Part shown: positions 6,179 to 60,890 of the stretch, piece after piece | How the letters are laid out: each line of letters begins with the position of its first letter | Numbering within the stretch: the stretch's first letter is position 1 | Origin: Anaeroplasmataceae bacterium | Lineage (GTDB): Bacteria; Bacillota_I; Bacilli_A; Acholeplasmatales; Anaeroplasmataceae | Reading direction: 5' to 3' | NCBI GenBank assembly: GCA_051874255.1 | Contig: JBJEFR010000113.1 | Span: forward strand, 421 to 64,420 | Length of the DNA: 64,000 nt | Translations under genes and position numbers: made by a program | Notes under the pieces: model-generated | The model's database searches: none | The model's input: the letters and a program-made list of their open reading frames with translations, nothing else | Told to the model about the DNA's origin: nothing

Positions 6179-6198
6179 CGAACTAGCTACTCCTTTTT
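6161..6198. terminator. Bidirectional hairpin spanning the stop codons of two convergent genes
   Basis: GGAATAGCTA (6168-6177) / TAGCTACTCC (6184-6193), 9 of 10 positions complementary, with a 6-nt loop. TTTTT follows on the plus strand and UUUUAUG on the minus strand. The plus-gene stop is at 6176-6178 and the minus-gene stop at 6187-6189. Confidence 0.55.
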
Positions 6199-6858
6199 AT
6201 TATTATTTTCATCTTTTTGCTTCTCACTTAATATTTCTTTAAGTATTTCTTCTCGCATATCACTTAAAATCTCTGAACGAAGCTTATCCTTCTCTTCTTT
6301 TAGCTTTTTATTTTTACTACTATTTAAGAATAAATTAACTGATTCAAGGATTATAATACCTACAAAGAATACAACTAATAATCCATATATTAAAGTTTTA
6401 TTTGAAGCAATTTTCCCTAGGTTTAAGAAATTAAATGTTCTTACATACTTTCCTACAAGCATATCCTCAGTAACACGTTCTATATCAACAATACCATTAT
6501 TGTTGTCTCCAAGCATCTCAAATCCATCCGTATATACTTCATTAATTCTATGAACTATATACATTCCTTCTGTTGAACCTTTAGATGAACGATATACTAT
6601 TATATCTCCTTTTTTTAATGTGCTATAATCACACTTTTTAAATATAATAGTATCCCCAGCATTAATTGTAGGCTCCATACTACTAGTAGGAACATAAGAG
6701 TATGAATATCCAAAATAGCTAACAGGCTTTGAAGTTCTAACAGCAATTACATTACATATTAGCATATATAATACTAATAATACTATAGTAATAGTTAAGA
6801 CTGTTCCGGATATTGTAAATATTTTTTTTACTTTTTTATTCATCGTCATCAGAGCCAT
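6187..6858 (-). CDS. SipW-type (archaeal/ER-type) signal peptidase I with a C-terminal TM and Lys/Glu-rich tail
   Basis: 223 aa with an N-terminal TM. Ser box PTSSMEPT, His box IVHRI, GDNN box, then a second TM (LIYGLLVVFFVGIIIL) and the charged tail KKLKEEKDKLRSEIL...KQKDENNNKKE. Overlaps the preceding gene by 23 nt. Confidence 0.8.
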   Translation of the reverse strand: MALMTMNKKVKKIFTISGTVLTITIVLLVLYMLICNVIAVRTSKPVSYFGYSYSYVPTSSMEPTINAGDTIIFKKCDYSTLKKGDIIVYRSSKGSTEGMYIVHRINEVYTDGFEMLGDNNNGIVDIERVTEDMLVGKYVRTFNFLNLGKIASNKTLIYGLLVVFFVGIIILESVNLFLNSSKNKKLKEEKDKLRSEILSDMREEILKEILSEKQKDENNNKKE

Positions 6859-9568
6859 GACTATCTATAATTTTTTTTCTCTCCTCAGGACTAAGATCAG
6901 TCCATCCATCAGCCTTTTTCTCAGCTTCCTTAGCCTGAGCCTCTAGTGCTTTACGTCTTATAGCTTCTCTTCTTCGACGTAGTAGCTCTTTAGGATCAAT
7001 ACTTTCCTCAACTGGAGTATCCTCTTCATCCTCTTCCTCATGAGCCTGAGCATTTTGACGATTTTTAGCTTCTAAGGCTCTTTGTCTTATAGCCTCTCTT
7101 CGTTTACGAAGAGCTTCTTTTATTTCGTCATCATTTGATGGAGAATTGCTAGAGATATTTTCAGTATTAGTTTGCTCCTCTGAAGCCTTCTTTTGAGCCT
7201 CAAGGGCACGACGTCTAATTATATCCCTATTACGTTCAAACATAGATCTAGAATCCATTTGAGTTGAACGCATACTTGGTTGATGAGTGCTTTGTTCATC
7301 TGAAGACTGAACGATATCAGAATCTAAACTAAATAATTCATCACGCTGTTGACTTTCAAGAGCCTCTCTTCTTCGTCTAAGCTTAGTTCTTGCATCCTCT
7401 TCCTTATGCTCATTATCTTCATCATCTTCTTCAATTACGGCTGTGCTATTTTTGTTTGCTAGAGCCTTTTGTCTAATAGCTTCTCTTCTTCGACGTAATA
7501 ATTCTTTTGGATCAAGTGTTTGTGTTGAAGTTTCTTCATCATCGTCCTCATCTTCAACCATATCATTTTCATCCATAGAATCTAAGGCCTTTATTCTTTC
7601 ATCAATGCTTCTTACTAAAGAATCATCGTCTTCATCTTCATCATCCTCTAGTTCTGCATTCTTTAAAGCTTCTTCCTTCGCTTTAGCTGCCGCAGCCTTT
7701 TGTCTAATTATTTCTCTTCGACGACGTAATAATTCCTTAGCATCAAGATGTGCCTTTTCAGCCTCAAGCTTACGCTCTTCCTCAGCAATACGCTCTTCCT
7801 CAGCAAGTCTTGCCTTTTCTGCTTCTTCACGTTCTGCCTTCTTACGTGCACGTTCCTCAGCTCTCTTTGCCTTCGCAGCATCTTGTTCAGCCTTTATTGC
7901 TGCACGACGCTCCATAAGCTTTGCCTTGGCTTCAGCCATACGAGCTTTTTCTGCAGCTTTTGCTTGATCACTTGCAGCCTTCGCGGCCTCACGTTCTGCC
8001 TTTTTACGTGCCATTTCTTCCTCATGAAGCCTTTGAGCCTCTTCTCTTTCACGAGCACGTTTTTCAGCACGTTCTGCCTTTTCCTTAGCTAATTTAGCTA
8101 AACGAGCTTCTCTTGCCTCTTGTTGACGTATCTTTTCTTCAAGCATTTGAATTTCTGCAAGAGTGTCATCATATTCCTTTTTAGTATTGTTATAATCAAT
8201 TTCTTTTAATCTTGTAACAGTTTCTAATACTTCTGATTTTTTCTTTGCTCTTTCAAGCTTAATTGGAAGTGGAACCTCATCGAAGCTACCTTCAATAGGC
8301 ATTTCAAATAATGGAGGATAAATAGAATTTAATACCTCCTGCATTTCTCTAAATACAAGCTCTAAGGAATACTTTTTCTCCATTCCTGAATTAACCTTAT
8401 CATCTAATGATTGTTGATAAAATTCTTGAGTTTTATTTAAGAAATACTCACTCATCTCAAACTTTTCAAGCTTTTGACTTGTTGGATTAAACTTATACTC
8501 ATCATCCATTTTAGAAAGCATTTTTGCCTTACGAGTAGTAAATTCCTTATATGGGGTATTTTCAGGGTCTAAATCAGTATCGCCATTAAAATATAGCATT
8601 GTACCTACAGCCTCTGACATAATACCATCAACTGTTTTAGCTAATTCATCTGGATACTTATTCTTCTTTTCCTTAACATTAACATCAAACGCTAATTCGT
8701 TATAACGATCAAGGAAAACCCAAGTATTATAACATACCTTAAACTCAGCATTCTTTAAAATAATATTAGTTTTTAAAATAGGAGGTGTTACCTCTTTATA
8801 GTTCTTTAAATCCTGCATTAATTTAGAAGAACGTAGAGTCTTATAATTTTCATGTATTGCTTGAGCTTTTTCAAATGTTTCACGGGCAGCCTTGATTTGG
8901 GCATCAAGCTGACGTTCCATCTTAACTGAAAGCTCAACCTTTACTTTAGTTTTTTCAAACTTAAAGCTATTTGTTACTGTCGTATTTTTAGTCTCATAGC
9001 TATCAAGATTCTTTTTCATAATTTGAACTCTTAATGATAAGAACTTACAAATACGATTGATTAATGTTTTTATAAACCTATTTTCATAGATTCCAATTTC
9101 ATCCTCAGCAAATGTAGTTAATAGCTTAGATGGGATTATATCTCCCTCTTCAGTAACTAACTTAATATTTTGAGTATGACTAGCCAAATGACGTACTGTA
9201 TCTGAATTAACCTTTTTTACCTTTTCCATAGGAACAACATCTTGTTCATATCGAATAGCTTTTTTAGGATCCTTTAATATTTTTGAAATACTTTTAAAGC
9301 ATGTCTCCAAAATAGGTATAAAAGACTTTTCAAATATTTTAGTCTCTCTTATTGTTTTCGAATAAACTGTACGAGAACCACCTTTAATTTGATTAAATAG
9401 CATATCACCTAAAGATGATTTTTCTCTAGCACTATCGAAGTTTTCGCTGAGAATGCGGTAAAATTCACTTACAGAATCATCATTTTCTTCTTCAGTTGTA
9501 GGAGGAATTATCTCTTCACTAGCACTTTGTAAAGATTCCTTTTCATTTACTTCTGCCACATTACTCAC
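6836..9568 (-). CDS. 910-aa cytoplasmic protein: ~470-aa globular N-domain, ER/K-rich helix, and six RRRREAIRQKALEA-type basic repeats separated by poly-acidic linkers
   Basis: Uninterrupted ORF with no TM or signal peptide. The short YENRFIKTLINRI segment resembles the N-terminal region of McrC-like partners. No PD-(D/E)xK nuclease motif was recognised. Confidence 0.6.
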   Translation of the reverse strand: MSNVAEVNEKESLQSASEEIIPPTTEEENDDSVSEFYRILSENFDSAREKSSLGDMLFNQIKGGSRTVYSKTIRETKIFEKSFIPILETCFKSISKILKDPKKAIRYEQDVVPMEKVKKVNSDTVRHLASHTQNIKLVTEEGDIIPSKLLTTFAEDEIGIYENRFIKTLINRICKFLSLRVQIMKKNLDSYETKNTTVTNSFKFEKTKVKVELSVKMERQLDAQIKAARETFEKAQAIHENYKTLRSSKLMQDLKNYKEVTPPILKTNIILKNAEFKVCYNTWVFLDRYNELAFDVNVKEKKNKYPDELAKTVDGIMSEAVGTMLYFNGDTDLDPENTPYKEFTTRKAKMLSKMDDEYKFNPTSQKLEKFEMSEYFLNKTQEFYQQSLDDKVNSGMEKKYSLELVFREMQEVLNSIYPPLFEMPIEGSFDEVPLPIKLERAKKKSEVLETVTRLKEIDYNNTKKEYDDTLAEIQMLEEKIRQQEAREARLAKLAKEKAERAEKRAREREEAQRLHEEEMARKKAEREAAKAASDQAKAAEKARMAEAKAKLMERRAAIKAEQDAAKAKRAEERARKKAEREEAEKARLAEEERIAEEERKLEAEKAHLDAKELLRRRREIIRQKAAAAKAKEEALKNAELEDDEDEDDDSLVRSIDERIKALDSMDENDMVEDEDDDEETSTQTLDPKELLRRRREAIRQKALANKNSTAVIEEDDEDNEHKEEDARTKLRRRREALESQQRDELFSLDSDIVQSSDEQSTHQPSMRSTQMDSRSMFERNRDIIRRRALEAQKKASEEQTNTENISSNSPSNDDEIKEALRKRREAIRQRALEAKNRQNAQAHEEEDEEDTPVEESIDPKELLRRRREAIRRKALEAQAKEAEKKADGWTDLSPEERKKIIDSHGSDDDE
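6935..7745 (-). repeat. Dispersed in-frame coding repeats (~40 nt cores) encoding (P)KELLRRRREAIRQKA
   Basis: Similar DNA words such as tagcttctcttcttcgacgta(g/a)ta occur at ~6961, ~7477 and ~7711. More diverged copies lie at ~7081, ~7201 and ~7361. Confidence 0.7.
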
Positions 9569-9591: not shown

Positions 9592-11154
9592 TTAGCTTAC
9601 CTTCTTTAAATCATTAATAAAATCAATTGATACCTTAAATGCATTCTTACCAAATAGCTTATCAAGTAATGTAATTAATTGATCTAGCTCATTACGTAAG
9701 AATGATAGATTTAAGCTTTCAAATTTACGTAAAATCTTGTTACATAGCATATAATCTAAACCTTGAATTTCAGTCATTCCACACGCAATGTATACAGGAA
9801 CGAATAGTTTAATTTGCTTCATAATACGGTTACCAAACGCAATTTTGAATTTTTCTTGAATAAATTCATCTAGTTTAGCAAAATTTTCCATTACACGCGT
9901 AGATAATTGAATATCTCTTTGTGCTTGTTTAAATAATTCGTCTAAATATTCAAATGACATTTGAACATTTTCAGTATATGGTGCATCTACCAATTCAGCC
10001 TTATGGTTAATTACAATAGGTAGAGCACGGTCATAAACCTTATCTGTGATTGTAAATGTTGAGTCGTCCTTATTGGCTGTACCAACAAACCAAATATTTT
10101 GATTAATTAATAGCTTACCATTAATTAATAGCTTAGGATCTAATGGATCTGTACCTGGAACCAAGTCAATTAACCATTGAGTTGGATCTGGCATTTCCAT
10201 TACAGACAAGAACTCTGCAAAATAATACTCAATACGTGCTAAGTTCATCTCATCAAGTACTATAAAGTTAGGCTTATCACTATAACCTGCCATATATACA
10301 CTTCTTAAGAAGTCTGTCTCATTAAATCTCTTAGTAAACTCATTTAAATAACCTAAAAGCTCAGCACGGTCACGCCATGATGGTTGAACAGAAATAATAC
10401 TTGTAGGCTTATTAAAGAATTTTCCCATCGCATATGGAAGTGATGTTTTTCCTGTTCCTGAAATACCTTCAAGAATAAGAACCTTAGTTGCACCCATTCC
10501 ACCAAAGAATCTCGCAATTATTTCCTTTGAATAATATAGCTTTAATTGACTTGCAGCATATCCAATAAATCTATCAATTAATCCAGGTAAATCTAACATA
10601 TCATCACTTGACATAATAGTATATTCTGGATTTGACTTATAATATGTATCAACCTGATTAAGCTTAATAAATCTTCCTTGGAATATTTCTTCTTCCTCAT
10701 CATCCTCAGGCTTACCTTGTGGGTTAAATAAGTCATCAGGATTAATATCAGTATCTCCACCAGATATTTGACTTACACGAAGTGCTAATATCTTATTCTT
10801 TTCATCAACTAAATCAATTACCTTTTTATTTAGTAATTGTACTTGGTCAACTAATTCATCTTTTTCAATTTCTCTTCTTCTAAAACGGAAATATCTCTTA
10901 AATAATACAACAATTAAAGTAACTAATAAAACCACAAAGGCAATATTAATAAACAATACTATAATATATGCAACCCAATCAGACCAATTCCAATACTGAT
11001 TATGAATACTTGCGTCCTTTAAATCTGAAATATATCCTTTAATATCTGTGTAAAAGGCATTTTTAAATGCTCTTCCGATCGTTTTGAAGAATTTTCCAAT
11101 ATTTTTAAAAATAGTTTTTAAAAATTCAGTATAATACTTCGCAAATTCCTTCAT
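9592..11154 (-). CDS. Membrane-anchored AAA+ ATPase of the AAA_5 / McrB-like type
   Basis: 520 aa. N-terminal amphipathic segment, one TM (WVAYIIVLFINIAFVVLLVTLIVVLF) followed by KRYFRFRRRE, and a coiled coil. Walker A LEGISGTGKTS, Walker B FIVLDEMNLARIEYYFAEFLS, then VGTANKDDSTF and QPSWRDRAELLGY. Confidence 0.7.
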   Translation of the reverse strand: MKEFAKYYTEFLKTIFKNIGKFFKTIGRAFKNAFYTDIKGYISDLKDASIHNQYWNWSDWVAYIIVLFINIAFVVLLVTLIVVLFKRYFRFRRREIEKDELVDQVQLLNKKVIDLVDEKNKILALRVSQISGGDTDINPDDLFNPQGKPEDDEEEEIFQGRFIKLNQVDTYYKSNPEYTIMSSDDMLDLPGLIDRFIGYAASQLKLYYSKEIIARFFGGMGATKVLILEGISGTGKTSLPYAMGKFFNKPTSIISVQPSWRDRAELLGYLNEFTKRFNETDFLRSVYMAGYSDKPNFIVLDEMNLARIEYYFAEFLSVMEMPDPTQWLIDLVPGTDPLDPKLLINGKLLINQNIWFVGTANKDDSTFTITDKVYDRALPIVINHKAELVDAPYTENVQMSFEYLDELFKQAQRDIQLSTRVMENFAKLDEFIQEKFKIAFGNRIMKQIKLFVPVYIACGMTEIQGLDYMLCNKILRKFESLNLSFLRNELDQLITLLDKLFGKNAFKVSIDFINDLKKVS

Positions 11155-11182: not shown

Positions 11183-12163
11183 TTATTCAACAGTTGAATC
11201 ATTTGAAGAATTATCTTCTCCATTTTCCTTCATCTTTTCTTCTTCACTAATACTTTCTTCTTTTTTCTTTTGTTCTTCTAAAGCTTCTTTTCTTAATTGT
11301 TCAAGTAATTCTTGCTTCATCTTTTCCTTTTCAGCCTCTAGCTCAGCTCTCATCTTTTCTTTTTCTTCTGTTGCATTTGCTGAAATCTTTTGTGTCTTAA
11401 TTGACATAACATTGAATATTACCATTACAAGTTCAAAAATCAAGAATAAGATAGTAGGTATTATTATTACAATAATAAATCCCTTTTTAGGATTAGAAAC
11501 CCATTTAATAGTTTTTCCAAATCCGCTAAGCTTTCCAGTATATACAGCCTCTATATCAGACAATGATACATTTTGTGCGTATCCCTTATAAACTAAATTA
11601 GCTGCGCCTCCATTACTTGGATCTGCAGTATAAATTGTATAATCATATTGTGTACCTAAATAACAATCTCCTTGTGTTACATATCCGGTAACAGCACCAC
11701 TACTATTCTTTACAACCTCTACGATTCTATGGGTATTTAAAAATCCAGTAGCAGCTCCTGTTGGATTTGGTGATATAGTATCCCAGAATGTAATAATATC
11801 TCCAACCTGGAATTTTGTTTTATCCTTCTCTTTTACAACCTTAACAAGAATTAAATCATTTACCGTAAATGAATCCTTTCTTGCCACAGCCCTAGATTCA
11901 TCAACAATAGCCTCATCTGTTGAACCAGGACTCATTGATTGTGACAATACTACTTCATATCCACGACCAAATATAGACTTTACAGAACGAGCGTCACTAC
12001 CTTTAATTTGTGTTATAGAAAATATCAATAACAAGAAAATAAAAATATAAAATATAGTATTTAGAGTTATATTAACAATTTTAATAATTTTATCTTTCTT
12101 ACTTAAAGGAAGCTTATCATTTTCATCATTAACTTTTACTTCATCAATAGTATTATTTTCCAT
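11183..12163 (-). CDS. Second SipW-type signal peptidase I paralog with a long insertion and a C-terminal TM plus charged coiled-coil tail
   Basis: 326 aa with an N-terminal TM. Ser box LSQSMSP, His box NTHRIVEV, QGD box, a second TM (GFIIVIIIPTILFLIFELVMVIF), then EEKEKMRAELEAEKEKMKQELLEQLRKEALEEQKKKEE. Confidence 0.7.
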   Translation of the reverse strand: MENNTIDEVKVNDENDKLPLSKKDKIIKIVNITLNTIFYIFIFLLLIFSITQIKGSDARSVKSIFGRGYEVVLSQSMSPGSTDEAIVDESRAVARKDSFTVNDLILVKVVKEKDKTKFQVGDIITFWDTISPNPTGAATGFLNTHRIVEVVKNSSGAVTGYVTQGDCYLGTQYDYTIYTADPSNGGAANLVYKGYAQNVSLSDIEAVYTGKLSGFGKTIKWVSNPKKGFIIVIIIPTILFLIFELVMVIFNVMSIKTQKISANATEEKEKMRAELEAEKEKMKQELLEQLRKEALEEQKKKEESISEEEKMKENGEDNSSNDSTVE

Positions 12164-12263
12164 GACTTACCTCCTGAATACAAACACTTTATTATATTTT
12201 AACACAAATGAAAAAAAAATAAAACACCTTAAATATATATATATTTAAATATAATATCTATGA

Positions 12264-12292
12264 ATAAAAAAAGCCGATGCTAAAACATCGAC
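12264..12292 (-). terminator. Intrinsic terminator after the 334-aa TasA-like gene
   Basis: Minus strand reads GUCGAUG-uuuuag-CAUCGGC followed by UUUUUUUAUU. Confidence 0.8.
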
Positions 12293-12332
12293 TCTTTTAT
12301 TCATTTTTAGATTAATTTAAATAATTAACAAA

Positions 12333-13337
12333 TTAAGCTCTTTCAGTTGTGAATGATAAATTAATTGTTAATGTTTGACCCATAATTGCATCGAAGCAGT
12401 CAGCATCAAATCCTTCTAACCAGAATGTGAATCTTACACGGTAAACTAAGTTAGAGGTATTAGCAGATGTATAAATAGCGTTTGCCTCTGTACCAAATCC
12501 TGTAGTTAAAGTTGGCTCTGTTGGATATGAAACACCATTTAAAGCACCATCACTAACAGCTGATAAGTATGCATTTGCAGCATTAGTTTCACCTAATGTT
12601 TGTCCAAAATTATATGCTAGGTCATCTGCAGTATTTGAACCATTTCCAGCTTTTAATGTTACACCATTATCAAATCCAAATATGTTAAGAACTCTTTCTG
12701 AGGTACCCCATTCAACTGCGTTTTCAGGTTTTTGACCACCCTTACATAACTTTTGCATAGTATCGCGCTCTTCACTACCTTCATATACTTCAACAATTGA
12801 TCTTAATGCATTTACAGCATCAACCTTAACTGCAGTACCTCCGATAAATGAACCATCATCATAACTAAAGTCATTTAATATAACATATGATTTATCAGCA
12901 TAATCACTTTCTACGGTATTTCCAGTTGATGAGAAATAAACACTTTGAGAAGGTCCACTTGTACATACATATAAATCAAATTGTAAATACATTGATGATG
13001 CACCAGTACCTGCCTCAACTATTGCATTATTAGAGAATTTCTTAAATGCAGTAGGTGTTGCAACTGGAGTAGTTGCATAATCATATGTTAGTGGTTGTAG
13101 TTCTAATCCTGTAAGAGCTTGATTTGAACTATCTGTAAGGATTGTTACATCTGAACTAAATGTCTTTCCATCAGTTGATAGTAATACTCCGTTTGTTCCA
13201 CCTTGAACGTTAACCTTTAAATCAGCTGTTGCAGTAGCGTTCATTGTAAACCAAGCGTAAGTTGTAGTTCCTAATGCTACGACTGCAAATGCCATAGATA
13301 GGATACTCATCAATAATTTTCTTGAAATTTTTTTCAT
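12333..13337 (-). CDS. TasA/camelysin-like secreted protein with a SipW-dependent-type signal peptide
   Basis: 334 aa. Signal anchor ends in GTTTYAWFTMNA (compare GGTWAAFND in B. subtilis TasA). C-terminal motif FWLEGFDADCFD and terminal strand TLTINLSFTTE. Strong AAAGGAG RBS. Confidence 0.65.
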   Translation of the reverse strand: MKKISRKLLMSILSMAFAVVALGTTTYAWFTMNATATADLKVNVQGGTNGVLLSTDGKTFSSDVTILTDSSNQALTGLELQPLTYDYATTPVATPTAFKKFSNNAIVEAGTGASSMYLQFDLYVCTSGPSQSVYFSSTGNTVESDYADKSYVILNDFSYDDGSFIGGTAVKVDAVNALRSIVEVYEGSEERDTMQKLCKGGQKPENAVEWGTSERVLNIFGFDNGVTLKAGNGSNTADDLAYNFGQTLGETNAANAYLSAVSDGALNGVSYPTEPTLTTGFGTEANAIYTSANTSNLVYRVRFTFWLEGFDADCFDAIMGQTLTINLSFTTERA

Positions 13338-13426
13338 AATTATTTTCTCCTTTTTTCTTTATATTTATTTGTTTTTTGTTTCCCTTTTTTAAATTTTTGC
13401 AATCTTCAACCGATTACTTTAGACTA

Positions 13427-13455
13427 ATTATAACATATTTGGAAATTATATTCAA
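13427..13455 (-). promoter_or_regulatory. Sigma-A type promoter for the 334-aa TasA-like gene (leader has no riboswitch)
   Basis: Minus strand reads TTGAAT - 17 nt - TATAAT, about 90 nt upstream of the start. Confidence 0.65.
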
Positions 13456-13460
13456 TACAG

Positions 13461-14903
13461 TTATTCCCAAATTGTTACAAAAGTCCATTTTAAGTCTTCT
13501 GGATTATCTGAACGAGCCCATACCTCTTCATCAAAATTCCATGGGGTAATTTCACCATTAGCGTCTAGCTTACCCCAGCCTTTAAATTTGTGGATTCCAT
13601 TTATTGAATAGATGTCCTTGATTGGACTTTGTTCACTGATTTTTTGACCTTGTATTTGATGAACAACCTTTGTTCCTGAATTAATATACACACCTTGCTC
13701 TTCATCATATACCTTGAATCCTGAATTTACTACCTCTCCTGTTTCAGGATTTGTAATCATGTATGTAAGTTCAACCGGTTCCGTTTGAATTTCAAATGAA
13801 GTGAAAGCCATCTTCATTTGAATTGTTTGATTCCAAATTGAATCCATACAGTCAGCATCCCAACCTTCAATCCATAGGAATATATTCATCTTAGCTGTAC
13901 CATTTTGACCATAATTATTTTCTTTGTTTAGATCAAGAATAGTAGCTCCCTCAAGAGTATCAAAACCCTTATAGGTTTGTGGAATTGACGAATAAGATAT
14001 TTCATTTAATACCTGACCTGTTTCATATCCACGAACATTATTGTAGTATGAAAATCCTGCATTTTTATTAAAATCATATCTCGCACCTATTGGCCCAACA
14101 TAATAATCTTCTGTTAAATCGGTTGCATAAGATCCAACTCCTGTACCAATCTCATAGATTTTGTAATTATTGTCTCTTACACCATTGTTTGTGATGCAGG
14201 TTGAAAACCTTATTGCATCAGACGCAAGAGTTTTGAATTCAAAATCAGGTTGGTTATCTTCAGATTTATCATATCTGAATAGCTCTCCTGTTAGGGGATT
14301 ATATGTATCAAATGAACCTGCTAATCTATTAGGGAAACCAATAGAATCAGCATTTTTAACAGTCAATTCAGTCTTGGGAACATATTCTCCATTGTAGACT
14401 AATTCTCTACTTGAAAAATATACCCTTCTATCTGACGCATCATCAGCCATGAAATACAAATCTAAATTAATAAATTCAGTATCTCTAACTGTCTTAACCT
14501 GGTTAAATAAATTTTTGAAATTTTCTCCATCTGTTGAGGTAACAGGCTCAAGAGACATTTTTTGAGCAAATTCTTCTTCATAGTTATCTGCATCTAGGTA
14601 TTCTGTTGTACCTGATGCATTCTTAAATGTGTAGCATGGCTCTTTATCTATATAACCAATACCATATCCATTAGCCTTAGCCAATATAGCCACCTTTATT
14701 TCTTTAGCAGATAACTGGTTTTTATAGTTTTTACCATCAATAGATATTTTTACACCATTCGCAGAATTAACCTCTAATTCCATATCATCAAACCAAGCGT
14801 TTGTGTTAAGCTTAAACCACGCAAATGTAACAGTCCCCGCTACTACTATAAGTAGTAATAGTGAAAATAAACTAATATAAAGTTTTTTAGACAAATTGAT
14901 CAC
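13461..14903 (-). CDS. TasA-like secreted protein with a C-terminal Listeria-Bacteroides-repeat-like extension
   Basis: 480 aa with a GTG start. Signal anchor ends in GTVTFAWFKLNT. Motif LWIEGWDADCMD, then IQMKMAFTSFE. The C-terminal ~110 aa ends in HKFKGWGKLD...PWNFDEEV...TFVTIWE. Confidence 0.6.
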   Translation of the reverse strand: MINLSKKLYISLFSLLLLIVVAGTVTFAWFKLNTNAWFDDMELEVNSANGVKISIDGKNYKNQLSAKEIKVAILAKANGYGIGYIDKEPCYTFKNASGTTEYLDADNYEEEFAQKMSLEPVTSTDGENFKNLFNQVKTVRDTEFINLDLYFMADDASDRRVYFSSRELVYNGEYVPKTELTVKNADSIGFPNRLAGSFDTYNPLTGELFRYDKSEDNQPDFEFKTLASDAIRFSTCITNNGVRDNNYKIYEIGTGVGSYATDLTEDYYVGPIGARYDFNKNAGFSYYNNVRGYETGQVLNEISYSSIPQTYKGFDTLEGATILDLNKENNYGQNGTAKMNIFLWIEGWDADCMDSIWNQTIQMKMAFTSFEIQTEPVELTYMITNPETGEVVNSGFKVYDEEQGVYINSGTKVVHQIQGQKISEQSPIKDIYSINGIHKFKGWGKLDANGEITPWNFDEEVWARSDNPEDLKWTFVTIWE

Positions 14904-14930: not shown

Positions 14931-15034
14931 TTAAAAATAAAAGTTGCCACCTTTATTTTTACAAGAATGACAACTGGCTATCCTTTTTGGACCCTGTAGC
15001 TTTGCGTCACTAGATTACTCTAGTTTTGCCAACT
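14931..15034 (-). promoter_or_regulatory. c-di-GMP-I (GEMM-I) riboswitch candidate with intrinsic terminator, in the leader of the 480-aa TasA-like gene
   Basis: Minus-strand RNA: AGUUGGCAAAACUAGA-GUAA-UCUAGUGACGCAAAGCUACAGGGUCCAAAAAGGAUAGCCAGUUG, then GUUGUCAUU...GGUGGCAAC-UUUUAUUUUU. It shows the GCAAA, GNRA-capped hairpin and ACGCAAAGC signature of GEMM-I. Confidence 0.78.
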
Positions 15035-15049
15035 ATTAACACATAATGT

Positions 15050-15086: not shown

Positions 15087-15827
15087 TTAGATTATCTTTT
15101 CATCGTATGCACTAAATGACATACCTATTTTGATAGAACCACCACTAATTGAGTTTTCTCCTTCATCAGTACAATCAAGATCTTCACCATCAAGCCACAT
15201 TATAATAGAATATTTTATAACATCACCTGGCTTAAAGGTTTTAATTGTTTCTGTAAAAATAGTCATATCAGTAAAAGTTTTCACTGTATGAAGCTTTTCA
15301 AAGGTATAATGAGTTTCGTTTGCTGGATCTTCATACTTTTTATATACTATTCCTTCAGTATCATCACCCTCGAAAACCCAAAATCTTACGGCACTATCAA
15401 CATTTCTAGTAACTGAAGTAATATTTAGTGTTGCATCAATATTACAAACCTCAGTTCCTTCATTCTTTAAATAAAATGTATATCCTATATAATCCCCAGC
15501 CTTAGATTCATATCTACCACCACCGCTATTAATTATTGGATATTTATTAACGCTTCCCATTTCTATAGGCTGAGCATTAGCTAAAAGATTTCCAGTTAAA
15601 ACCTGTCTTGCTCCATTAGGATCATCTATTTTTTCATATAAACTAATACCAATTCCACTTAAATCATCAGGAACGCTAATAGTAAATCCTCCTGTGCTCG
15701 TACCATAGAAGGTTACAACTCCAATGGTTGCTGAAAGTAAAAGGAAAATTATTAGTAATATTATTAAGATTTTCTTTTTTCTAAACAATGATACTGATTT
15801 ATCAGTAACTACATCTCTTTTACTCAT
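15087..15827 (-). CDS. TasA-like secreted protein (divergent signal-peptide junction)
   Basis: 246 aa with a signal anchor ILIILLIIFLLLSATIGVVTFYGTSTGGFT. FYLKNEGTEVCNI segment, motif MWLDGEDLDCTD, and terminal strand SIKIGMSFSAY. Confidence 0.55.
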   Translation of the reverse strand: MSKRDVVTDKSVSLFRKKKILIILLIIFLLLSATIGVVTFYGTSTGGFTISVPDDLSGIGISLYEKIDDPNGARQVLTGNLLANAQPIEMGSVNKYPIINSGGGRYESKAGDYIGYTFYLKNEGTEVCNIDATLNITSVTRNVDSAVRFWVFEGDDTEGIVYKKYEDPANETHYTFEKLHTVKTFTDMTIFTETIKTFKPGDVIKYSIIMWLDGEDLDCTDEGENSISGGSIKIGMSFSAYDEKII

Positions 15828-15842
15828 AACTTTCCTCCTTCT

Positions 15843-15948
15843 TTAAAAAATAAAAGTTGCCATATCCTTAATATGATACAGCAACTGGCTATCCTTTTGG
15901 GACCCTATAGCTTTGCGTCACTAGATTACTCTAGTTTTGCTTTAACCA
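15843..15948 (-). promoter_or_regulatory. c-di-GMP-I (GEMM-I) riboswitch candidate with intrinsic terminator, in the leader of the 246-aa TasA-like gene
   Basis: Minus-strand RNA: GCAAAACUAGA-GUAA-UCUAGUGACGCAAAGCUAUAGGGUCCCAAAAGGAUAGCCAGUUGC, then an 11-bp terminator stem GUUGCUGUAUC/GAUAUGGCAAC followed by UUUUAUUUUUU. The aptamer core is nearly identical to the copy at 14972-15034. Confidence 0.78.
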
Positions 15949-15949
15949 T

Positions 15950-15978
15950 ATTATAGAATAATTTATTTTGATAGTCAA
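15950..15978 (-). promoter_or_regulatory. Sigma-A type promoter driving riboswitch copy 2
   Basis: Minus strand reads TTGACT - 17 nt - TATAAT, immediately downstream of the stop of the GGDEF-EAL gene. Confidence 0.7.
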
Positions 15979-15984
15979 TTATAA

Positions 15985-17679
15985 CTATTCTTCTTTGTCA
16001 TCATCTTCATCAGCTTCATCTTCATCTTCTTCCTCATCTTCATCAGCATCAGCCTCTTGAGGAGAAGGTGTTTTCTTATCATTATCTTCTTCATTAGCTA
16101 CATTTGTATCATCTTGTGATGTATTTACATCATCTTGTGTTGATGTATTTGTATCATCTTGTGATGTGTTCACATCATCAACTGTAGCTGCAGCATCATT
16201 TTCTTCATTATTAGCTGTAGGTGTATCCTCTACTTGTGAAGCCTCAGTCTTTGGTTTAGCTTCTTCGGCCTTCTTAGTATTTTCCTCCCACTTACGATAT
16301 CTAATGAAATCTAAAACCTCTGTCTCTGGCATAGGCTTTGAATAATAATAACCTTGACCATAAATAATATTTTGTGATTTAACATAGTCGACATTTTCCT
16401 TAGTTTCAATTCCCTCTGCAACAACTAAACGTTTTGTTAATTCAGCTGATTCAGTAAGCATTTTTACAAACTTTTCTCTTATTTCATCATTAGAATTTTC
16501 ATCAGCTAAGAATTTTCTATTAAGCTTAATCATGTCGATAGGTTCTTTTTGAATACGAGTTAATGTTGAATAGTCAAGCTCAAATCCATCAACAGCTGTC
16601 ATAAATCCGAAATCTCTTAGCTTCATTAGATTTTGCTTTACATTATCAACCTTTTCAAACATTGCAAATCCGCCAATTTCTAATATAACACTTTTTGGAT
16701 TTACTGATGCTTTTTTAGCAACTAAAATCAAATCATCAGCTAATGATTCATAGGTTAACTGCTTAATAGATAGGTTTAAGGAAATATGAGCATTTCCTTC
16801 CTCCATAAGCTTTTGAACATCACTTAGCATCTTTAATGCTAAAGTAAGTCCCCATTTACCTACCCAATATATATCACCTGATTGATCCATAATATTAATG
16901 AATTCTGCTGGTGGTAGAATACCACGCTTTGGATGGTTCCAACGCATTAGGGCTTCAAATCCATAAATATTATTGCTTTCAAGATTCATAATTGGTTGAT
17001 AATATAGGCAGAACTCTTTATTAGCAATAGCCTGCTTAACCTCTTTGAAGAACTTAAAGTTAGAAGTTTCTTCCTTAGTTAATGTATTATAGAAGACAGT
17101 ATATTTTGAACCGCCTTCTCTTTTTGAGATATATGTTGCAAGCTCAAGATTTTTAATTAAATCTGGAACAGTTTTACCACATGAAGGATATAAGCATACT
17201 CCTGCACTAGCTGTTAAAACGATTGACTCACTTGTAGATACAAACATTTTTTGTTTGACATCATTTAATAATGCCTCTGCAATCTTACAAGCATTTTCAT
17301 AGGTTAAATTTTCTTTAATAAAGATTAAAAACTCGTCATTGTTATACTTAGAAATTACAGTACGATATGGTAATCTTTTAGAAAATCGGTGTGCTAATTC
17401 CTGTAGGAATTCATCACATTGTTCTCTACCAAAAATTTCATTAATATTTGTAAAGTTATCTATATCAATATATATAAGTGTAAAATCACCAAATTTTCCA
17501 ACCTTTTTAATATATGAAGCGATAGCCTTATTCATATCATTTTTGGAAATAGTTTTATCATTAAGAACTTCATTTTCCTCTTTAAATCTCTTTACATTAT
17601 ATTTTATTAGGAAAAAGATTAGTACTGATATTAAAATTACTACTACTATAGCCACACATGCTAGGATTATTTCTTTCAT
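15985..17679 (-). CDS. Membrane-anchored GGDEF-EAL protein, degenerate in both domains, with an acidic repetitive C-terminal tail
   Basis: 564 aa with one N-terminal TM. The GGDEF position reads NNDEF. The EAL domain keeps FEALMRW, EGIE and QG, but has EIGG where E-x-T-E is expected and VDGFELDYS where DDFGTGYS is expected. The tail is rich in D/E/T/N. Confidence 0.75.
   Translation of the reverse strand: MKEIILACVAIVVVILISVLIFFLIKYNVKRFKEENEVLNDKTISKNDMNKAIASYIKKVGKFGDFTLIYIDIDNFTNINEIFGREQCDEFLQELAHRFSKRLPYRTVISKYNNDEFLIFIKENLTYENACKIAEALLNDVKQKMFVSTSESIVLTASAGVCLYPSCGKTVPDLIKNLELATYISKREGGSKYTVFYNTLTKEETSNFKFFKEVKQAIANKEFCLYYQPIMNLESNNIYGFEALMRWNHPKRGILPPAEFINIMDQSGDIYWVGKWGLTLALKMLSDVQKLMEEGNAHISLNLSIKQLTYESLADDLILVAKKASVNPKSVILEIGGFAMFEKVDNVKQNLMKLRDFGFMTAVDGFELDYSTLTRIQKEPIDMIKLNRKFLADENSNDEIREKFVKMLTESAELTKRLVVAEGIETKENVDYVKSQNIIYGQGYYYSKPMPETEVLDFIRYRKWEENTKKAEEAKPKTEASQVEDTPTANNEENDAAATVDDVNTSQDDTNTSTQDDVNTSQDDTNVANEEDNDKKTPSPQEADADEDEEEDEDEADEDDDKEE
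16105..16180 (-). repeat. Imperfect 21-24 nt tandem coding repeats (DDVNTSQ/DDTNTST units) in the acidic tail
   Basis: The word atcatcttgtg recurs at 16108, 16129 and 16153. Confidence 0.6.
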
Positions 17680-20138
17680 TAATTCCCACCTGCTTTTCCA
17701 CTTGTTTTATTTTCACTTGCAACTTTACCAGTTTTTAATAATGCAAAAGCATCTTCCTTTGATAAAGCTTTACCTATATAGTATCCTTGGATAATATCGG
17801 CACCAAACTTTGCAACGATATCCTTTTGAATCTTAGTTTCTACACCTTCACAAATTACCTTATCTCCTAATTCCTTAGCAAGAGATATAATTTTTGAAGT
17901 TAAAACCTTACTAAAACGGTCAGTTTCAATATGCTTAATAAATTCCTTATCAACCTTAATAGTATCAATAGGTAGCTCCTTTAAATACAACATTGATGAA
18001 TATCCAGTACCAAAGTCATCAAGATGCACAGAAATACCACGATTCTTTAAAATCTTTAATTTCTCAACAACAGTTTGGAAGTTTTCCATTAGGAATGTTT
18101 CTGTTACTTCCACTGCAATAGAACCTGGCTGAAGATTATTCTTTTCAAATTCATCAAGTAAATCAGCAACGAATCCAGCTTGAACGATTTGAGCAGGACT
18201 GACATTTACTGATATATGAATATCATATTGTTCCATTTCTTTTGCTGTTTTTAAAACATCCTTAGTAATAAAATTACCAACATCGATAATAAATCCATTT
18301 TTTTCAGCTAACTCAATATAAACCTGTGGAGATATTCCCGCATATTTTGGATTATTCCATCTTAATAAAGCTTCAAATCCACAAACTCTTTCTTGATTGA
18401 TTTCATATTGTGGTTGATAGAACATTACGAATTCGTTTTTAGCAATAGCTTGCTTCAAATCCTCTTCCATTTCTCTATCCTTTTGGGCCGCATTTTCTAG
18501 ATTAGTATCATATTTAGCAACCATTCTACCTGCAGAATTTTTAGCACGCTCACAAGCTATTCTTAGCTTATCAATTAGCATATCGTGAGTTGTTTCACAA
18601 TCTCCATCCATATCAGATCCTAAAAGACCTACAGCAGGACGAAGCATTATTTCATTATTATTTATTTCTATAGGTGCCTTTAATTCATTAATTAATGTAT
18701 CTGTTTTCATCATCGCATCAGCTTCATTATGCTCTGTAGTTAATAGTACAAACTCATCTGCACCTATATGAAATACATGGTATCCTTCATATATTTGATG
18801 TAATACATTAGAGAAAAATGCAAGTACATCATTTCCGGCCTTAAATCCTAATAGGGTATTTACATTTTTAAATCCCTTTAGATTAGTAATTAAAAGTAAA
18901 TATGGATCTCCTACAGCCTTATATTTAGCTTTAGCTTCTCTATAACATCTATCAAGAACAATAGCATTATCATCAGCTGTTACAGCACTCTTTGTAGAGC
19001 TTGAAATTAGTATTTGTTCATTATTATATTCTTCAGTTATTACTCTTCCTACGATAGAATAATCACCGCTTCTTTTTAATGACATAAATTCAAAATAAAC
19101 ATTCTCTTCTACCTTTTCACCATTTTCATCTACTGGTGGTACATATTCAAGTACAAAGGCTTTTTGTGCCTTTATTGCATCAACAAGATTAATTCCCTTT
19201 ACTAAATTAAGCTCCGCAAGGGACTTAATAGGAACAATATGATTTGGAAATGCTACTTTAAATGATTTATTATATTTGACAATACGACCATTACTCTTAG
19301 CAATCAAAACTATATTAGCTGTTTTGGTATTTACACCTGCATCAATTCCTGATGATTTAATTAATTTCTTAATTAGTAGTATAAGTACCACTGCAAATAA
19401 AATTAATACTAATGAAATTCCACCAATATACGCAAATCTTAATTTTGAAAGATTACTAGAAAATTGAGTAACTAACGTTTTATCAACAACTCTAACTAAA
19501 TTAAATCCCATGAAATCTTTTATCGCCATATATGCGTCTATTTCATTATTATCACCAACTAAAATATCTAATTCTATTGTAAATACTTCATCAGATGCTA
19601 ATCCTTCAATACATTTATTTACTAAAGCCTCATCATTTGATTTACTTAAGACAGTTATAAAGTTGTTTGTTAAATAACTAGGATTTGATCCTAAAATAGT
19701 ACCATTATCAGCTACAATAAGAATAGGATTAATGTTTTCTAAGCTACAATCTATAGCAACCTTATCTAATAGTTCATTTAGAGGAACCTTTACTACCTGT
19801 ATATCTTTTTTTAGGTATAAAAAATAACCTGATCCTGATTCTTCAACATCACTTGCACTAGCGATTATGTAATTTGATTCACCAAAGACATCAATATCAA
19901 CATTAGCAGACTCAAATTTAGTAGAATCCTCTAAAAATAAAGCATTGTAATTAGATATTTCTGAATATATCCATGATTCGGCAGTACTTAAATGACTAGA
20001 TGTTTGAGCAAGCGCATTATCATTAGAAATAGTTCCGACACCTACTTCATAAGTCACTGTACATCCCAAGAAACATAAGAATAAAAATATTAAGATTATT
20101 ATATACGTTTTTAAGTCCTTAACACGCAACTCGCCCAC
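17679..20138 (-). CDS. Sensor GGDEF-EAL protein with a canonical EAL phosphodiesterase domain and a degenerate GGDEF (GADEF)
   Basis: 819 aa. N-terminal hydrophobic segment, a ~220-aa extracytoplasmic region, then a TM. The EAL motifs FEALLRW, NVS, EVTE, DDFGTGYS, KVDK, EGVE and QGYY are all present. The track start is GTG at 20138; a TTG at 20129 preceded by AGGTGG is an alternative. The stop overlaps the next start as TAATG. Confidence 0.8.
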   Translation of the reverse strand: MGELRVKDLKTYIIILIFLFLCFLGCTVTYEVGVGTISNDNALAQTSSHLSTAESWIYSEISNYNALFLEDSTKFESANVDIDVFGESNYIIASASDVEESGSGYFLYLKKDIQVVKVPLNELLDKVAIDCSLENINPILIVADNGTILGSNPSYLTNNFITVLSKSNDEALVNKCIEGLASDEVFTIELDILVGDNNEIDAYMAIKDFMGFNLVRVVDKTLVTQFSSNLSKLRFAYIGGISLVLILFAVVLILLIKKLIKSSGIDAGVNTKTANIVLIAKSNGRIVKYNKSFKVAFPNHIVPIKSLAELNLVKGINLVDAIKAQKAFVLEYVPPVDENGEKVEENVYFEFMSLKRSGDYSIVGRVITEEYNNEQILISSSTKSAVTADDNAIVLDRCYREAKAKYKAVGDPYLLLITNLKGFKNVNTLLGFKAGNDVLAFFSNVLHQIYEGYHVFHIGADEFVLLTTEHNEADAMMKTDTLINELKAPIEINNNEIMLRPAVGLLGSDMDGDCETTHDMLIDKLRIACERAKNSAGRMVAKYDTNLENAAQKDREMEEDLKQAIAKNEFVMFYQPQYEINQERVCGFEALLRWNNPKYAGISPQVYIELAEKNGFIIDVGNFITKDVLKTAKEMEQYDIHISVNVSPAQIVQAGFVADLLDEFEKNNLQPGSIAVEVTETFLMENFQTVVEKLKILKNRGISVHLDDFGTGYSSMLYLKELPIDTIKVDKEFIKHIETDRFSKVLTSKIISLAKELGDKVICEGVETKIQKDIVAKFGADIIQGYYIGKALSKEDAFALLKTGKVASENKTSGKAGGN

Positions 20139-25021: not shown

Positions 25022-28000
25022 TCATTCTTCATCACTACCAAAAATACCTTTATAGGTAGCTAAAGCATTATAGCTCTCTGTTGTCTTAATTCCCCAATTA
25101 GAAGAATCAACATTCTCACCCTCAGTAATAACAATACTTAGGGAAATATTTTGAGTAATGATTGATGAATATGGAACAAACGCACCACTTTCAGATTTAC
25201 CTGGCTCTATGGAAGAATCAATTTGATTTTGCTTATCAGTATATGATGAAGCAACATAAGCACTTGGAATACTTACATAGAAATAGAAATATCCTTGTGG
25301 CAGAGTTTGAAGCTTATACCTTAATGTATACATCTTTAATCCATCGCTTGATAGACCTGCATATGTAGCATAAGCACTTATTTGCTTATATCCTACATAT
25401 TCATTAAGTCTATTATACATATTTTCATAAATTGTTAAGTATATATCCTCAAGAGTAAAATCTGCAGGAGTATATATTGTTACATTAAAGTAAACATTAT
25501 TTGTTGAATCAATTATTGAAATATGAAAATATCTAATGTTTCCAGCACCCTCTGTATCTCCATGTAATGCTGATTCACTCATTACAAGATATGAAACATA
25601 CCAGAAGTGTCCATCAAGTGGAGTACCTATATAATCCATATATAATGATTGATTCTTAGTAGGATCTCCAGCAAATGAAGCAACCTTATATCCATTAAAT
25701 CCAGCATATCCTTCTTCTGCTATGCTAGTTGTGTTAGTAGCCGTATATGTAGTAGGTAATGTAGATGTATATGTATATAGCTTAGCATCCTCATTAGTAC
25801 CATCATAATCTGTAGTATAAACAGCTTGCCATTCATAGTTAGCATTTAATTTAACTAAGAATACGCTAATTTCACCACTTGCGTTTTCAAATGGAACATA
25901 TAATAATGTTTCGCTAGCAATATGGCTAGATAAAATATTAGTATCATATGTTGTTTGTGAAGAACCATATGTAGTTAATTTGGTAATAGTAGTATATTGA
26001 TATATTTGAGCATAATCATTAATTTTAAATGTTGGAGCATAGTATGATAAATCAGAATCAGCAACAGTACCAATTGTATAATAATCAGTTATATCAGTAC
26101 TATCACTTCCGTTATTATATACTATTCCATCTGTACGAATATTAATTGATCTTGATGATGAATTAAATACATCTGAATATAATACATCATTACTACTATA
26201 ATAATTTGGATCTCCATCGGTATTTGGTATCAACGCTATCTCTGGAAGCATAACTGTTGCGGTATTACCAATAACAATAGATTGATCTAGGAAGGTAAGT
26301 TGTTTTAATAAAGCATCTCTTGAGAATAGCTTTTCAACAACAAGCTCTGGGAATTCATAATATCTTTCATATTCTTCTCCTTCCCAAATTCCTGTATTTT
26401 GATATGTATAAACAAATGTATAGATACCTGGCTCATTATTATCTGATACTGTAACAGTCATACCAGCATAAGTAACATTACTTGCAGCATCTGTTGATGA
26501 TTTATCTAAATTGATATCAAATATTACATTCTCACCTAATGTATAGAAATTTGATAATACATATTTAATTCTATATTGTGGTTCAATACCACGGTTGAAA
26601 GCTACACCAATCTTCATATCGTCTGCTAAAGACCAGCTATATGAACCACTAGTTTCTGTGCAAGTGTCATCGTCAAGAGAATATGTAAATGTACCACTGC
26701 TTAATGTTGAGACAACATTACCATCTGCATATAACGATGCATATGTTGATCCTTCGTCAAAGAATTGTGACTCTTTAAGAACATGAACATATTCCATAGT
26801 ACTTCCAGATTCTGAAGTAACATTGTATGTTACAGTATATGTCATTAATCCCTTTGTATCAATAGATTTTTCAGCATATATACTAACTATTGCGTTATCA
26901 GAAATTTCAAATTTATATAGATAGAATGATTCAGAGGTTAATAGTGTTAAATCATCACTATTATAAGCCATACCAAATGGAATAATACTTGTTACAATCT
27001 TATTACTATTAATAGTATCCTTTAAATCTTCACCATCAAAATAGAACTCAACAATAGCATTTTCAGTATTAGCATTTTTAACTGCTGTTACACTTGCGAT
27101 ATCGCCATATACATTAACAGTAAACACTACATCACCTTGTGGCATTGACTTATCAATGTCAATAACTATTGTAGCTATACCATTTTTAATAATTCCATTA
27201 TTCTTAGCATTTACATTAAACATCCATGTATTATTTTCACCATCACCATTTACAGTTACAAATTGCTTCATATCCATACCATTAGGTAATGATGCTGTAT
27301 ATGTTAAGGTAACAGTATCTCCACTATACTCAATAACAGCCTTATCAATAGTAAGTGTTGGTGAAGTAGCTTCAACTAAAATGAATATAACATCATAATC
27401 TGTATAAATAGTTGTATCCTCGGCATATATTCTTATAGCCTTACTTGCAGTTATAGTATTTCCATCAATAGTCTTATTACTTAATGATATTATAGTACTA
27501 TTATTTCCTACACTAGCATTATCTGCAAGTACAATTTTATTAATATCAACAGATGATACTGATTTTAAATAATCAAACATACTCGAAGATACATAATATG
27601 TAATTTGATTTTCAGTTATTTGCTCTGAAGAAGAGTTAATTATTATATCATTATATTCTAAATCCAATGTAAAAATTGAAGTTGATATTGATAACAATAA
27701 TTGCTTCATATTTACATAAAATTGATAATTAATTGAATCCTCAGTTCTATTATTAGGATTATCTTCTGTTCCACCACGCCAAGTAGATGATAATTCCTCT
27801 GTTAGTACATATTCACCTAATTCTTCATTAACATCATAGTATGTATCCATACTAGATAATTCTAGATTATCTGGAATGAATATACCATTTTTAATACCCT
27901 TACTTGAAGCAAGTGCATAAATACCATAACCATCAATATTAGATGTTAATCCTAAATGCTGCATAAGCTCAAGGAATTTGTCTGAGTCTATAGATGTATC

Positions 28001-60756: not shown

Positions 60757-60890
60757 TTTTAATTACTCCTTTCGCCTATAATCCTTTATAGACTTGCTCC
60801 ATGGAAAAACCCTACACATCGACTGACAACGTATATCGGTGTATCGGCAACCTCCCACTTCACAGCCAACTCTTGACCTGAGTCTTTTCT

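Follow-up and report, generated by a model that had tools for sequence, protein, structure and literature searches.

The 64,000-nucleotide stretch of DNA analyzed here (the window; positions 421 to 64,420 of contig JBJEFR010000113.1, assembly GCA_051874255.1, from an Anaeroplasmataceae bacterium) contains on its reverse strand, as are all window features given below, the gene of a 910-amino-acid McrC-like (DUF2357) protein without a nuclease (6836..9568, stop codon 6836-6838; all coordinates are window positions unless a related locus is named). The gene starts with GTG, preceded by GAAGGGG. Its 3' end overlaps the gene of a downstream signal peptidase by 23 nucleotides, and a gap of 23 nucleotides separates it from the gene of a McrB-like GTPase on its other side. 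The protein can be divided into a conserved N-domain (residues 30-470, 8159..9481), delimited by its profile, its AlphaFold2 (AF2) model and its DUF2357 match, a helical region rich in A, E, K and R (residues 471-612, 7733..8158), recognized by composition statistics, and a clade-specific tail (residues 613-910, 6839..7732), in which sequence analysis revealed six basic helices and acidic linkers. A preliminary description of this DNA, made from the sequence alone, had proposed these three regions, and all of them were found, the A/E/K/R stretch with a length of 142 residues. It had furthermore considered the protein cytoplasmic for want of a signal peptide. This was borne out, as no hydrophobic segment is present in the 910-amino-acid protein (maximum KD19 0.86) and hence neither a signal peptide nor a transmembrane (TM) helix.

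The kinship to McrC resides in the N-domain. The Pfam hidden Markov model (HMM) of DUF2357 (PF09823) matches residues 88-202 (8963..9307), with 37.1 bits for the full-length protein and 40.6 bits for the N-domain alone at a curated cut-off of 23.3, and it recognizes all 46 aligned relatives (best E 1e-14). Bell et al. (PMC11090510) place DUF2357 at the N-terminal end of McrC; the scan made here did not include E. coli McrC. The match includes the segment DEIGIYENRFIKTLINRICKFL, which carries the most conserved motif of the family, and the invariant motif IYENRF. In 103 sequences Y-E-N-R is invariant or nearly so; it is located in the very segment, DEIGIYENRFIK, that the preliminary description had found reminiscent of McrC-type activators. 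When residues 30-470 were used as a profile, 1886 clusters (50% identity) were matched over its whole length, 660 of these at values below 1e-30. The conserved unit of about 440 residues exceeds DUF2357 in extent and is the only part of the protein that occurs family-wide.

An AF2 model of the N-domain built from the 103-sequence alignment reached a pLDDT value of 88.1. It consists of a helical bundle, a long beta-hairpin (residues 191-220, 8909..8998), which the AF2 secondary structure shows with a long helix on either side, and a second half made up mainly of helices. When this model was compared with 350,542 PDB chains by Foldseek, the two top matches were both E. coli McrC (6hz4_M and 6ut6_G), a ranking that corroborates the McrC assignment without proving it. 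A first AF2 model from only nine sequences (pLDDT 62) had given meaningless Foldseek matches without McrC and was superseded by the 103-sequence model. A sequence-profile search of the PDB with the N-domain found nothing. None of the 46 relatives matches any nuclease family. A PD-(D/E)xK-like sheet is absent from the AF2 model, whose C-terminal half is helical with a single short strand pair. A hidden PD-(D/E)xK site at D287...E300-K was considered and rejected, D287 being conserved in 69% and E300 in 54% of the sequences without any conserved K. The N-domain of the protein is thus a member of DUF2357, the family of McrC N-domains, and carries no nuclease, as the preliminary description had supposed for both points.

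The gene directly upstream (9592..11154) encodes a protein of 520 amino acids, identified by profile and motif analysis as a McrB-like GTPase. It starts with an amphipathic N-terminus, followed by one hydrophobic segment (residues ~64-90; KD19 3.26 at residue 64), a heptad coiled coil with an a/d occupancy of 0.6, a poly-E linker and the NTPase domain. A DNA-binding specificity domain of the McrB type is not present, its place at the N-terminus being taken by the amphipathic helix, the hydrophobic segment and the coiled coil. In hhalign, the profile of the GTPase family and E. coli McrB can be aligned over the region that extends from Walker A to the signature motif inclusive (94.9%, E 4.5e-8), and in a profile search of the PDB, McrB chains were the only specific matches; a PDB search with the single NTPase sequence found nothing. 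The motifs GISGTGKT, LDEMNLAR and GTANKDDS are invariant in 33 GTPase sequences, including N361, D363 and D364. According to Bell et al. (PMC11090510), an E or a second D usually comes after the NxD signature, and the NKDD of the window GTPase fits this description of the NxD clade, with the caveat that it is also readable as NxxD and that hhalign pairs D364 with the McrB Asp.

Relatives of the pair were collected in a scan of one genome per species, in which 163 genomes with a relative were found; locus counts given here refer to the best 80 of these 163. Close relatives of the McrC-like protein were recovered by way of the GTPase. The 80 loci belong almost entirely to Anaeroplasmataceae, Acholeplasmataceae, Mariniplasma and Peloplasma, i.e. 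to the wall-less order Acholeplasmatales, the closest one (93% identity) being that of an uncultured Anaeroplasmataceae genome. Wherever a related locus holds a full-length GTPase gene (72 loci), this gene is located directly upstream of the McrC-like gene. The pairing of the 910-amino-acid protein with the 520-amino-acid NTPase, already suspected in the preliminary description, is therefore upheld by both the McrB-like profile and the adjacency of the genes. The GTPase is by far the more conserved partner, with ~67% identity as compared to ~39% in the partner N-domain for the same distant relatives. As a side observation, the GTPase linker that joins the coiled coil to the NTPase domain (~10686-10778, residues ~126-156) is poly-E with a net charge of -6 to -11 in the window's clade, and roughly neutral with a KKK patch in neighbouring clades.

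The McrC-like protein resembles E. coli McrC in being encoded directly after a McrB-type NTPase and in having it as its best, though non-significant, structural match (PDB 6hz4, 6ut6). It differs from E. coli McrC by the missing PD-(D/E)xK nuclease, by an N-domain of roughly double length that includes an additional helical half, and by a charged tail of 440 residues, whereas the partner GTPase differs from its E. coli McrBC counterpart by a membrane anchor in place of the DNA-binding domain. With the CnuC proteins of the CoCoNuT systems, e.g. of Type III-A, the protein shares an NxD-clade partner, the loss of the nuclease and coiled coils outside the DUF2357 bundle, as far as CnuC is described in the available part of PMC11090510. 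CoCoNuT operons, according to the same source, contain HEPN or other nucleases and RNA-binding domains (CSD, Hsp70-like), none of which is found here; the window operon instead encodes secreted proteins and signal peptidases.

A closer counterpart is CoCoPALM, which is named by Bell et al. (2024, eLife 13:RP94800; PMC11090510) in one paragraph of the available text, with its analysis deferred. CoCoPALM is described there as a large clade of GTPases with the NxD signature that carry, as a fusion, an FtsB-like domain of TM segment and coiled coil, and no GTPase of the NxD-type McrB group had been characterized at that time. Like CoCoPALM, the window locus encodes an NxD-clade McrB-like GTPase with an N-terminal TM segment and coiled coil as well as a nuclease-free McrC homologue with a long charged helical extension, and it has signal peptidase genes in the operon. 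Of the four features stated for CoCoPALM in that paragraph, three are present in the window, while the fourth, the FtsB-like domain, is matched by architecture without detectable homology. The locus is therefore best filed as a member of the named CoCoPALM class and not as a canonical McrBC, the nuclease and DNA-binding features of which are absent. No later paper on CoCoPALM was found in the literature, and the available part of the supplements of Bell et al. contains no text matching the window proteins. Compared with the available text of that paper, the order-wide conservation in Acholeplasmatales, the cyclic di-GMP (c-di-GMP)-I riboswitches together with GGDEF-EAL genes, the families of secreted proteins with a 'YAWFT' signal and the clade-specific Arg-rich tail, all described below, are additions.

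Behind the N-domain, residues 471-612 are composed of 27% A, 25% E, 15% K and 14% R (80% A/E/K/R), with only 11% bulky hydrophobic residues; the ER/K composition pointed out in the preliminary description for residues ~475-610 is thus real. Charges are well mixed in this region (segregation z = -1.6), and pairs of opposite charge at i/i+3 and i/i+4 are enriched, with 0.40 per residue as compared to 0.30 in shuffled sequences (z = 2.85). The hydrophobic occupancy of a/d positions amounts to 0.12-0.38, which is like that of a single alpha-helix (SAH) rather than heptad-like. By these sequence statistics the region is compatible with a single alpha-helix, although Ala at the a/d positions could still permit a coiled coil. 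ER/K SAH domains occur, for example, in myosin VI and X and in caldesmon. The window stretch shares with them the richness in E, K and R, the scarcity of hydrophobic residues, the enriched i/i+4 pairs and the well-mixed charges, but it is unusually rich in Ala (27%). A charged helical tail is found in nearly all relatives (median 180 amino acids, ~47% charged residues); in relatives from other clades it is more hydrophobic and resembles ordinary coiled coils.

The remaining residues, 613-910, contain six copies of a LLRRRREAIRQKA-like motif (consensus xLRRRREAIRxxA) starting near residues 613, 690, 729, 777, 819 and 862. They correspond to basic helix 1 (KELLRRRREIIRQKAAAAKA, 7679..7738), helix 2 (KELLRRRREAIRQKALAN, 7454..7507), helix 3 (KLRRRREALESQQRDELF, 7331..7384), helix 4 (SMFERNRDIIRRRALEAQKK, 7187..7246), helix 5 (KEALRKRREAIRQRALEAKN, 7061..7120) and helix 6 (KELLRRRREAIRRKALEAQAKEA, 6929..6997). 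Copies 3 and 4 are degenerate (KLRRRREALESQ and FERNRDIIRRRALEA, respectively), and helix 3 is poorly conserved among relatives. The linkers between the basic helices carry net charges of -3 to -21, so that the alternation of six basic helices with D/E linkers seen in the preliminary description was confirmed. The charge blockiness of residues 613-910 (z = 6.2) was reached by none of 500 shuffles. The pattern R[RKN]R[ED][AI][IL] occurs five times, whereas at least one occurrence was obtained in only 111 of 20000 shuffles (0.6%). The repeat pattern is no chance effect of composition. Four of the copies also form a DNA repeat family of 57 nucleotides with 65-84% identity. A database search with residues 602-910 returned nothing at E <= 0.001 and missed the known relatives too; candidates of low complexity had probably overloaded the word index.

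The Arg-rich repeats are restricted to the clade of the window, being present in nine genome loci with an N-domain identity of at least 75% and in metagenomic relatives. In this clade the basic cores have a mean conservation of 0.72, with most core positions at or above 0.9, as compared to 0.33 for the linkers, and the codons that differ between repeat copies do so largely by synonymous changes (7 of 10 and 9 of 14). Furthermore, LRRRRE(A/L)(I/L), the motif of the McrC-like tail, also forms the C-terminus of the GGDEF-EAL protein whose gene lies just upstream of the operon in the related loci L009 (1523-3568) and L004/L005 (3379-5220). This sharing of the motif in two relatives suggests a docking motif. 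The acidic C-terminal tail of the GGDEF-EAL protein has a net charge of -25 to -41 over its last 110 residues in the window's clade; the window protein itself (15985-17679) contains no LRRRRE-type motif. In other clades (L027, L035, L044, L032), DDLSDEELEALM in four to five copies and DEEFMQALGDIPEGKE in three copies were found at the same position of the tail. Short helices repeated on a charged stalk thus seem to be a common plan, in which the motifs differ from lineage to lineage.

These observations bear on the possibility that the ER/K region and the repeats are neutral, fast-evolving low-complexity sequence and that only the N-domain matters, which we regard as unlikely. Such drift would agree with a tail length that varies from 33 to 478 amino acids in the 80 loci and from 2 to 924 amino acids among cluster representatives, with a content that depends on the clade and with some members almost without a tail. 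It would also agree with the turnover of repeats visible in L007, where three near-identical tandem copies stand side by side. It does not agree with basic cores that are kept within the clade while the linkers drift, with repeat copies differing mostly by synonymous changes, with a charge blockiness far from random, or with the independent acquisition of the motif by a second protein of the locus. A neutral tail is therefore contradicted within the clade of the window, where the tail sequences point to a function. The simplest reading of the tail is a rigid charged helix that bears a lineage-specific array of short docking helices. The tandem copies of L007 (11579-14122) comprise a unit of ~40 residues, EEEEAPKAQGAKSAKDLLAERRAAIAAKAKTVEPDEDDD, and point to a recent expansion of the repeats in this tail.

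The gene order around the pair is the same, on one strand, in every related locus that is long enough: often two GGDEF-EAL genes, three to seven genes of paralogous secreted proteins, a SipW-like peptidase gene, the GTPase gene, the McrC-like gene and a second SipW-like peptidase gene. This order, found in 80 loci, spans the range from Anaeroplasmataceae to Peloplasma aerotolerans, and the position of the locus is constant, often beside rplM-rpsI. In the window, the SipW-like (ER/archaeal-type) signal peptidase upstream of the pair (11183..12163, from HMM and hydropathy) has two TM segments and an E/K-rich cytoplasmic tail. The downstream one (6187..6858, TIGR02228) likewise has two TM segments and an E/K-rich tail. 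One flanking peptidase matches TIGR02228 with 75.3 bits at a cut-off of 51.85, both match the SipW model NF046067 below its cut-off, and both genes are conserved in related loci. The E/K-rich tail is helical and follows the second TM segment in both peptidases; among relatives the upstream peptidase varies in length from 216 to 525 amino acids.

The three secreted proteins of the window were delimited by sequence analysis. Secreted protein 1 (12333..13337) has a signal segment ending in GTTTYAWFT and a C-terminal WLEGFDADC motif; secreted protein 2 (13461..14903) is its paralogue, and secreted protein 3 (15087..15827), a further paralogue, is encoded by the first gene of the operon. Common to these proteins are a signal segment ending in T-x-A-W-F and a C-terminal WLEGxDxxC motif. 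An identity with TasA or camelysin was considered and is unsupported by Pfam, NCBIfam and a PDB profile search, which found no TasA; the proteins are therefore described here just as secreted, with signal regions of the SipW type. In the Pfam scan the secreted proteins of the window gave no Peptidase_M73 match, whereas two of 25 relatives matched at E 0.084; the best match had 17.2 bits at a cut-off of 22.5 and covered the signal region only. In Acholeplasmataceae and Peloplasma (observed in L087, Peloplasma aerotolerans M4Ah, at 11870-12622, 13466-14158 and 14158-14841, and in L083 at 13404-14060), an extra 'YAWFT'-signal protein is encoded between the McrC-like gene and the second peptidase gene. 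In the same group, a further c-di-GMP-I riboswitch follows the operon and precedes more 'YAWFT'-signal proteins. One of these additional proteins is the best, still sub-threshold, match to Peptidase_M73 (camelysin/TasA).

Matrix fibres are produced from the operons sipW-tasA of B. subtilis and sipW-bsaA-bsaB-bsaC of C. perfringens (PMC11580942). The window operon resembles them in combining a dedicated SipW-type peptidase with several paralogous secreted proteins, and its secreted proteins share the signal regions ending in T-x-A-[WYF]-F-like sequences with those of the sipW operons (PMC11580942). In contrast, the sipW operons have no NTPase module, and the window operon has two peptidases, each with a long charged cytoplasmic tail, and secreted proteins that stay below the Pfam threshold of Peptidase_M73.

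Two c-di-GMP-I riboswitch aptamers (RF01051, gathering threshold 35) precede genes of secreted proteins. One forms the leader of the operon before the gene of secreted protein 3 (15877..15951, 57.7 bits), and the other is located before the gene of secreted protein 2 (14966..15040, 55.8 bits). Promoter-like sites with 11 of 12 positions matched lie just upstream of the aptamers (15978-15950 and 15077-15050), and a terminator-like hairpin (15886-15855) overlaps the first aptamer. A c-di-GMP-I riboswitch was present before the operon in all seven related loci tested, including that of Peloplasma aerotolerans, in one to three tandem copies; RF01051 had 14 further matches in these seven loci. Directly upstream of the operon are two GGDEF-EAL genes (15985..20138), the proximal one encoding a protein with a very acidic C-terminal tail, and this arrangement is conserved in many relatives.

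The presence of two SipW-like peptidases, three secreted proteins, two riboswitches and GGDEF-EAL proteins argues against a role of the operon in restriction or defence and for one at the cell surface. The explanation we favour, and consider rather probable as a whole, is that the 910-amino-acid protein serves as the McrC-type subunit in a repurposed McrBC module, pairing on the cytoplasmic side with a McrB-like NxD GTPase that is anchored in the membrane. If E. coli McrBC is taken as the model, the helical bundle and the long beta-hairpin of the N-domain would insert into the hexameric ring of the GTPase and stimulate GTP hydrolysis. From what the available part of PMC11090510 reports of McrC, the hairpin of residues 191-220 is a candidate for the 'stalk' or 'finger' entering this ring. 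The effector would not be a nuclease; rather, the complex may work at the inner face of the membrane together with the two signal peptidases. There it may process, export, assemble or anchor the secreted proteins, as a surface fibre, pilus or matrix, when c-di-GMP permits transcription. The A/E/K/R helix of ~140 residues could serve as a rigid spacer of roughly 20 nm, and the clade-specific Arg-rich helices, spaced by flexible acidic linkers, could be multivalent docking motifs.

McrBC is a textbook restriction enzyme, and the locus could accordingly be read as a defence system of Type IV restriction or CoCoNuT-like kind, in which the pair would sense nucleic acid of invaders, RNA or DNA would be bound by the Arg-rich helices, and the other proteins of the locus would be the effectors. 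Both core proteins descend from McrBC, and the GTPase matches the candidate defence family PDC-M26A of PADLOC at 1.2e-35. The Arg-rich helices of the tail may also resemble RNA-binding arginine-rich motifs, and for the CoCoNuTs, which are the closest relatives of the GTPase so far described, RNA is the predicted target (PMC11090510). On the other side, the Arg-rich motif of the tail is confined to one clade, neither in the pair nor in the operon was a nuclease or other nucleic-acid enzyme found, and the GTPase is predicted to be anchored in the membrane. In addition, the genes are co-oriented with those of secreted proteins and signal peptidases under c-di-GMP riboswitches, and the position of the locus, often by rplM-rpsI, and its gene order are fixed across the whole order and vertically inherited, unlike those of mobile defence islands. 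A defence function is thus very improbable in our view.

Mollicutes have no cell wall, and by their taxonomy the loci belong to such hosts. This gives room for a different idea, namely a membrane-associated scaffold of the cytoskeleton or of division, built from a TM and coiled-coil GTPase and long charged helices, with the secreted proteins as mere peptidase cargo unrelated to it. Charged helical segments are found in each of the four components that are membrane-bound or cytoplasmic, and a TM segment followed by a coiled coil, as in the N-terminus of the GTPase, is also the architecture of FtsB-type proteins (PMC11090510, available part). Homology to FtsB, however, was not detected, the operon contains no division genes, and its control by c-di-GMP riboswitches, together with the strictly kept association with secreted paralogues, speaks for a surface structure instead. 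A scaffold therefore appears very unlikely to us.

Several results weigh against the repurposed McrBC module as proposed here. The function proposed for the class is deduced from its genes. The Foldseek matches to McrC are non-significant (E 0.086 and 0.096; TM-scores 0.14-0.27; probability 0.94 for 6ut6_G). In hhalign, the N-domain family gave no match to the single E. coli McrC sequence, i.e. the sequence similarity of the window protein to E. coli McrC is undetectable by this method. Kinship of the N-terminus of the GTPase to FtsB was not detected either (hhalign probability 0.3 against E. coli FtsB; no match to the Pfam families DivIC/FtsB), and it is an assumed topology of its one hydrophobic segment that puts the GTPase in the cytoplasm. 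An assignment of the secreted proteins to TasA/camelysin failed, Peptidase_M73 matching only below threshold and in the signal region, and because of this the terms 'pilus' and 'fibre' are unproven. The repeat tail is absent from most of the family, with no motif in 71 of the 80 related loci, and therefore lies outside the core mechanism of the family. The preliminary description had held that absence of the repeats from otherwise conserved homologues would make them dispensable low complexity. That expectation came half true: the absence is found in these 71 loci, but within its own clade the region is conserved. Finally, the charge of the GTPase linker does not correlate with that of the tail across the family (rho -0.05, p = 0.71). 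Docking of the Arg-rich helices on the poly-E linker of the GTPase is a possibility for the window's clade, in which the linker is acidic; this clade represents a single evolutionary event.

Going further, the McrBC-derived pair of GTPase and plug, originally a restriction enzyme, might have become the motor or checkpoint, located in the cytoplasm and gated at transcription by c-di-GMP riboswitches, of a new machine for the export or assembly of surface fibres in wall-less bacteria. Its fast-evolving tail would then recruit components, in some species including the neighbouring c-di-GMP enzyme with the same motif. We put this forward tentatively, as a reading that is more doubtful than the module itself. 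If true, a nuclease-free McrBC coupled to secreted proteins and their signal peptidases would clearly exemplify how a motor of defence can be enlisted for surface building. Acholeplasmatales are rich in GGDEF/EAL proteins, of which A. laidlawii encodes 14 (PMC2408644), and no output of these proteins was found described for Acholeplasmatales in the literature. The order-wide, riboswitch-led operon offers a concrete, testable target for c-di-GMP signalling in this order and may open a way to adhesion or biofilm in the Mollicutes common in gut and rumen, and the repeat tail supplies a small, defined peptide (DPKELLRRRREAIRQKALEA) for partner hunting. The novelty of these findings is moderate, since the class already has a name; its mechanism is new ground, and the riboswitch link together with the shared motif makes the class directly testable.

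Some further observations concern the deposited sequences and the remainder of the window. Contigs with an operon of the Acholeplasmatales type (L013, L014, L060, L064, L069, L076 and L088) have been deposited as Parabacteroides distasonis, Elusimicrobiaceae, Treponema, Anaerotignum, Bacteroidales and Alistipes finegoldii; these unrelated names are probably binning errors. Within the window, a single open reading frame of 3849 amino acids extends over positions 25022-36571, and an S10-Clostridia ribosomal protein leader (RF03136, 39.8 bits) is located at 60772-60871.

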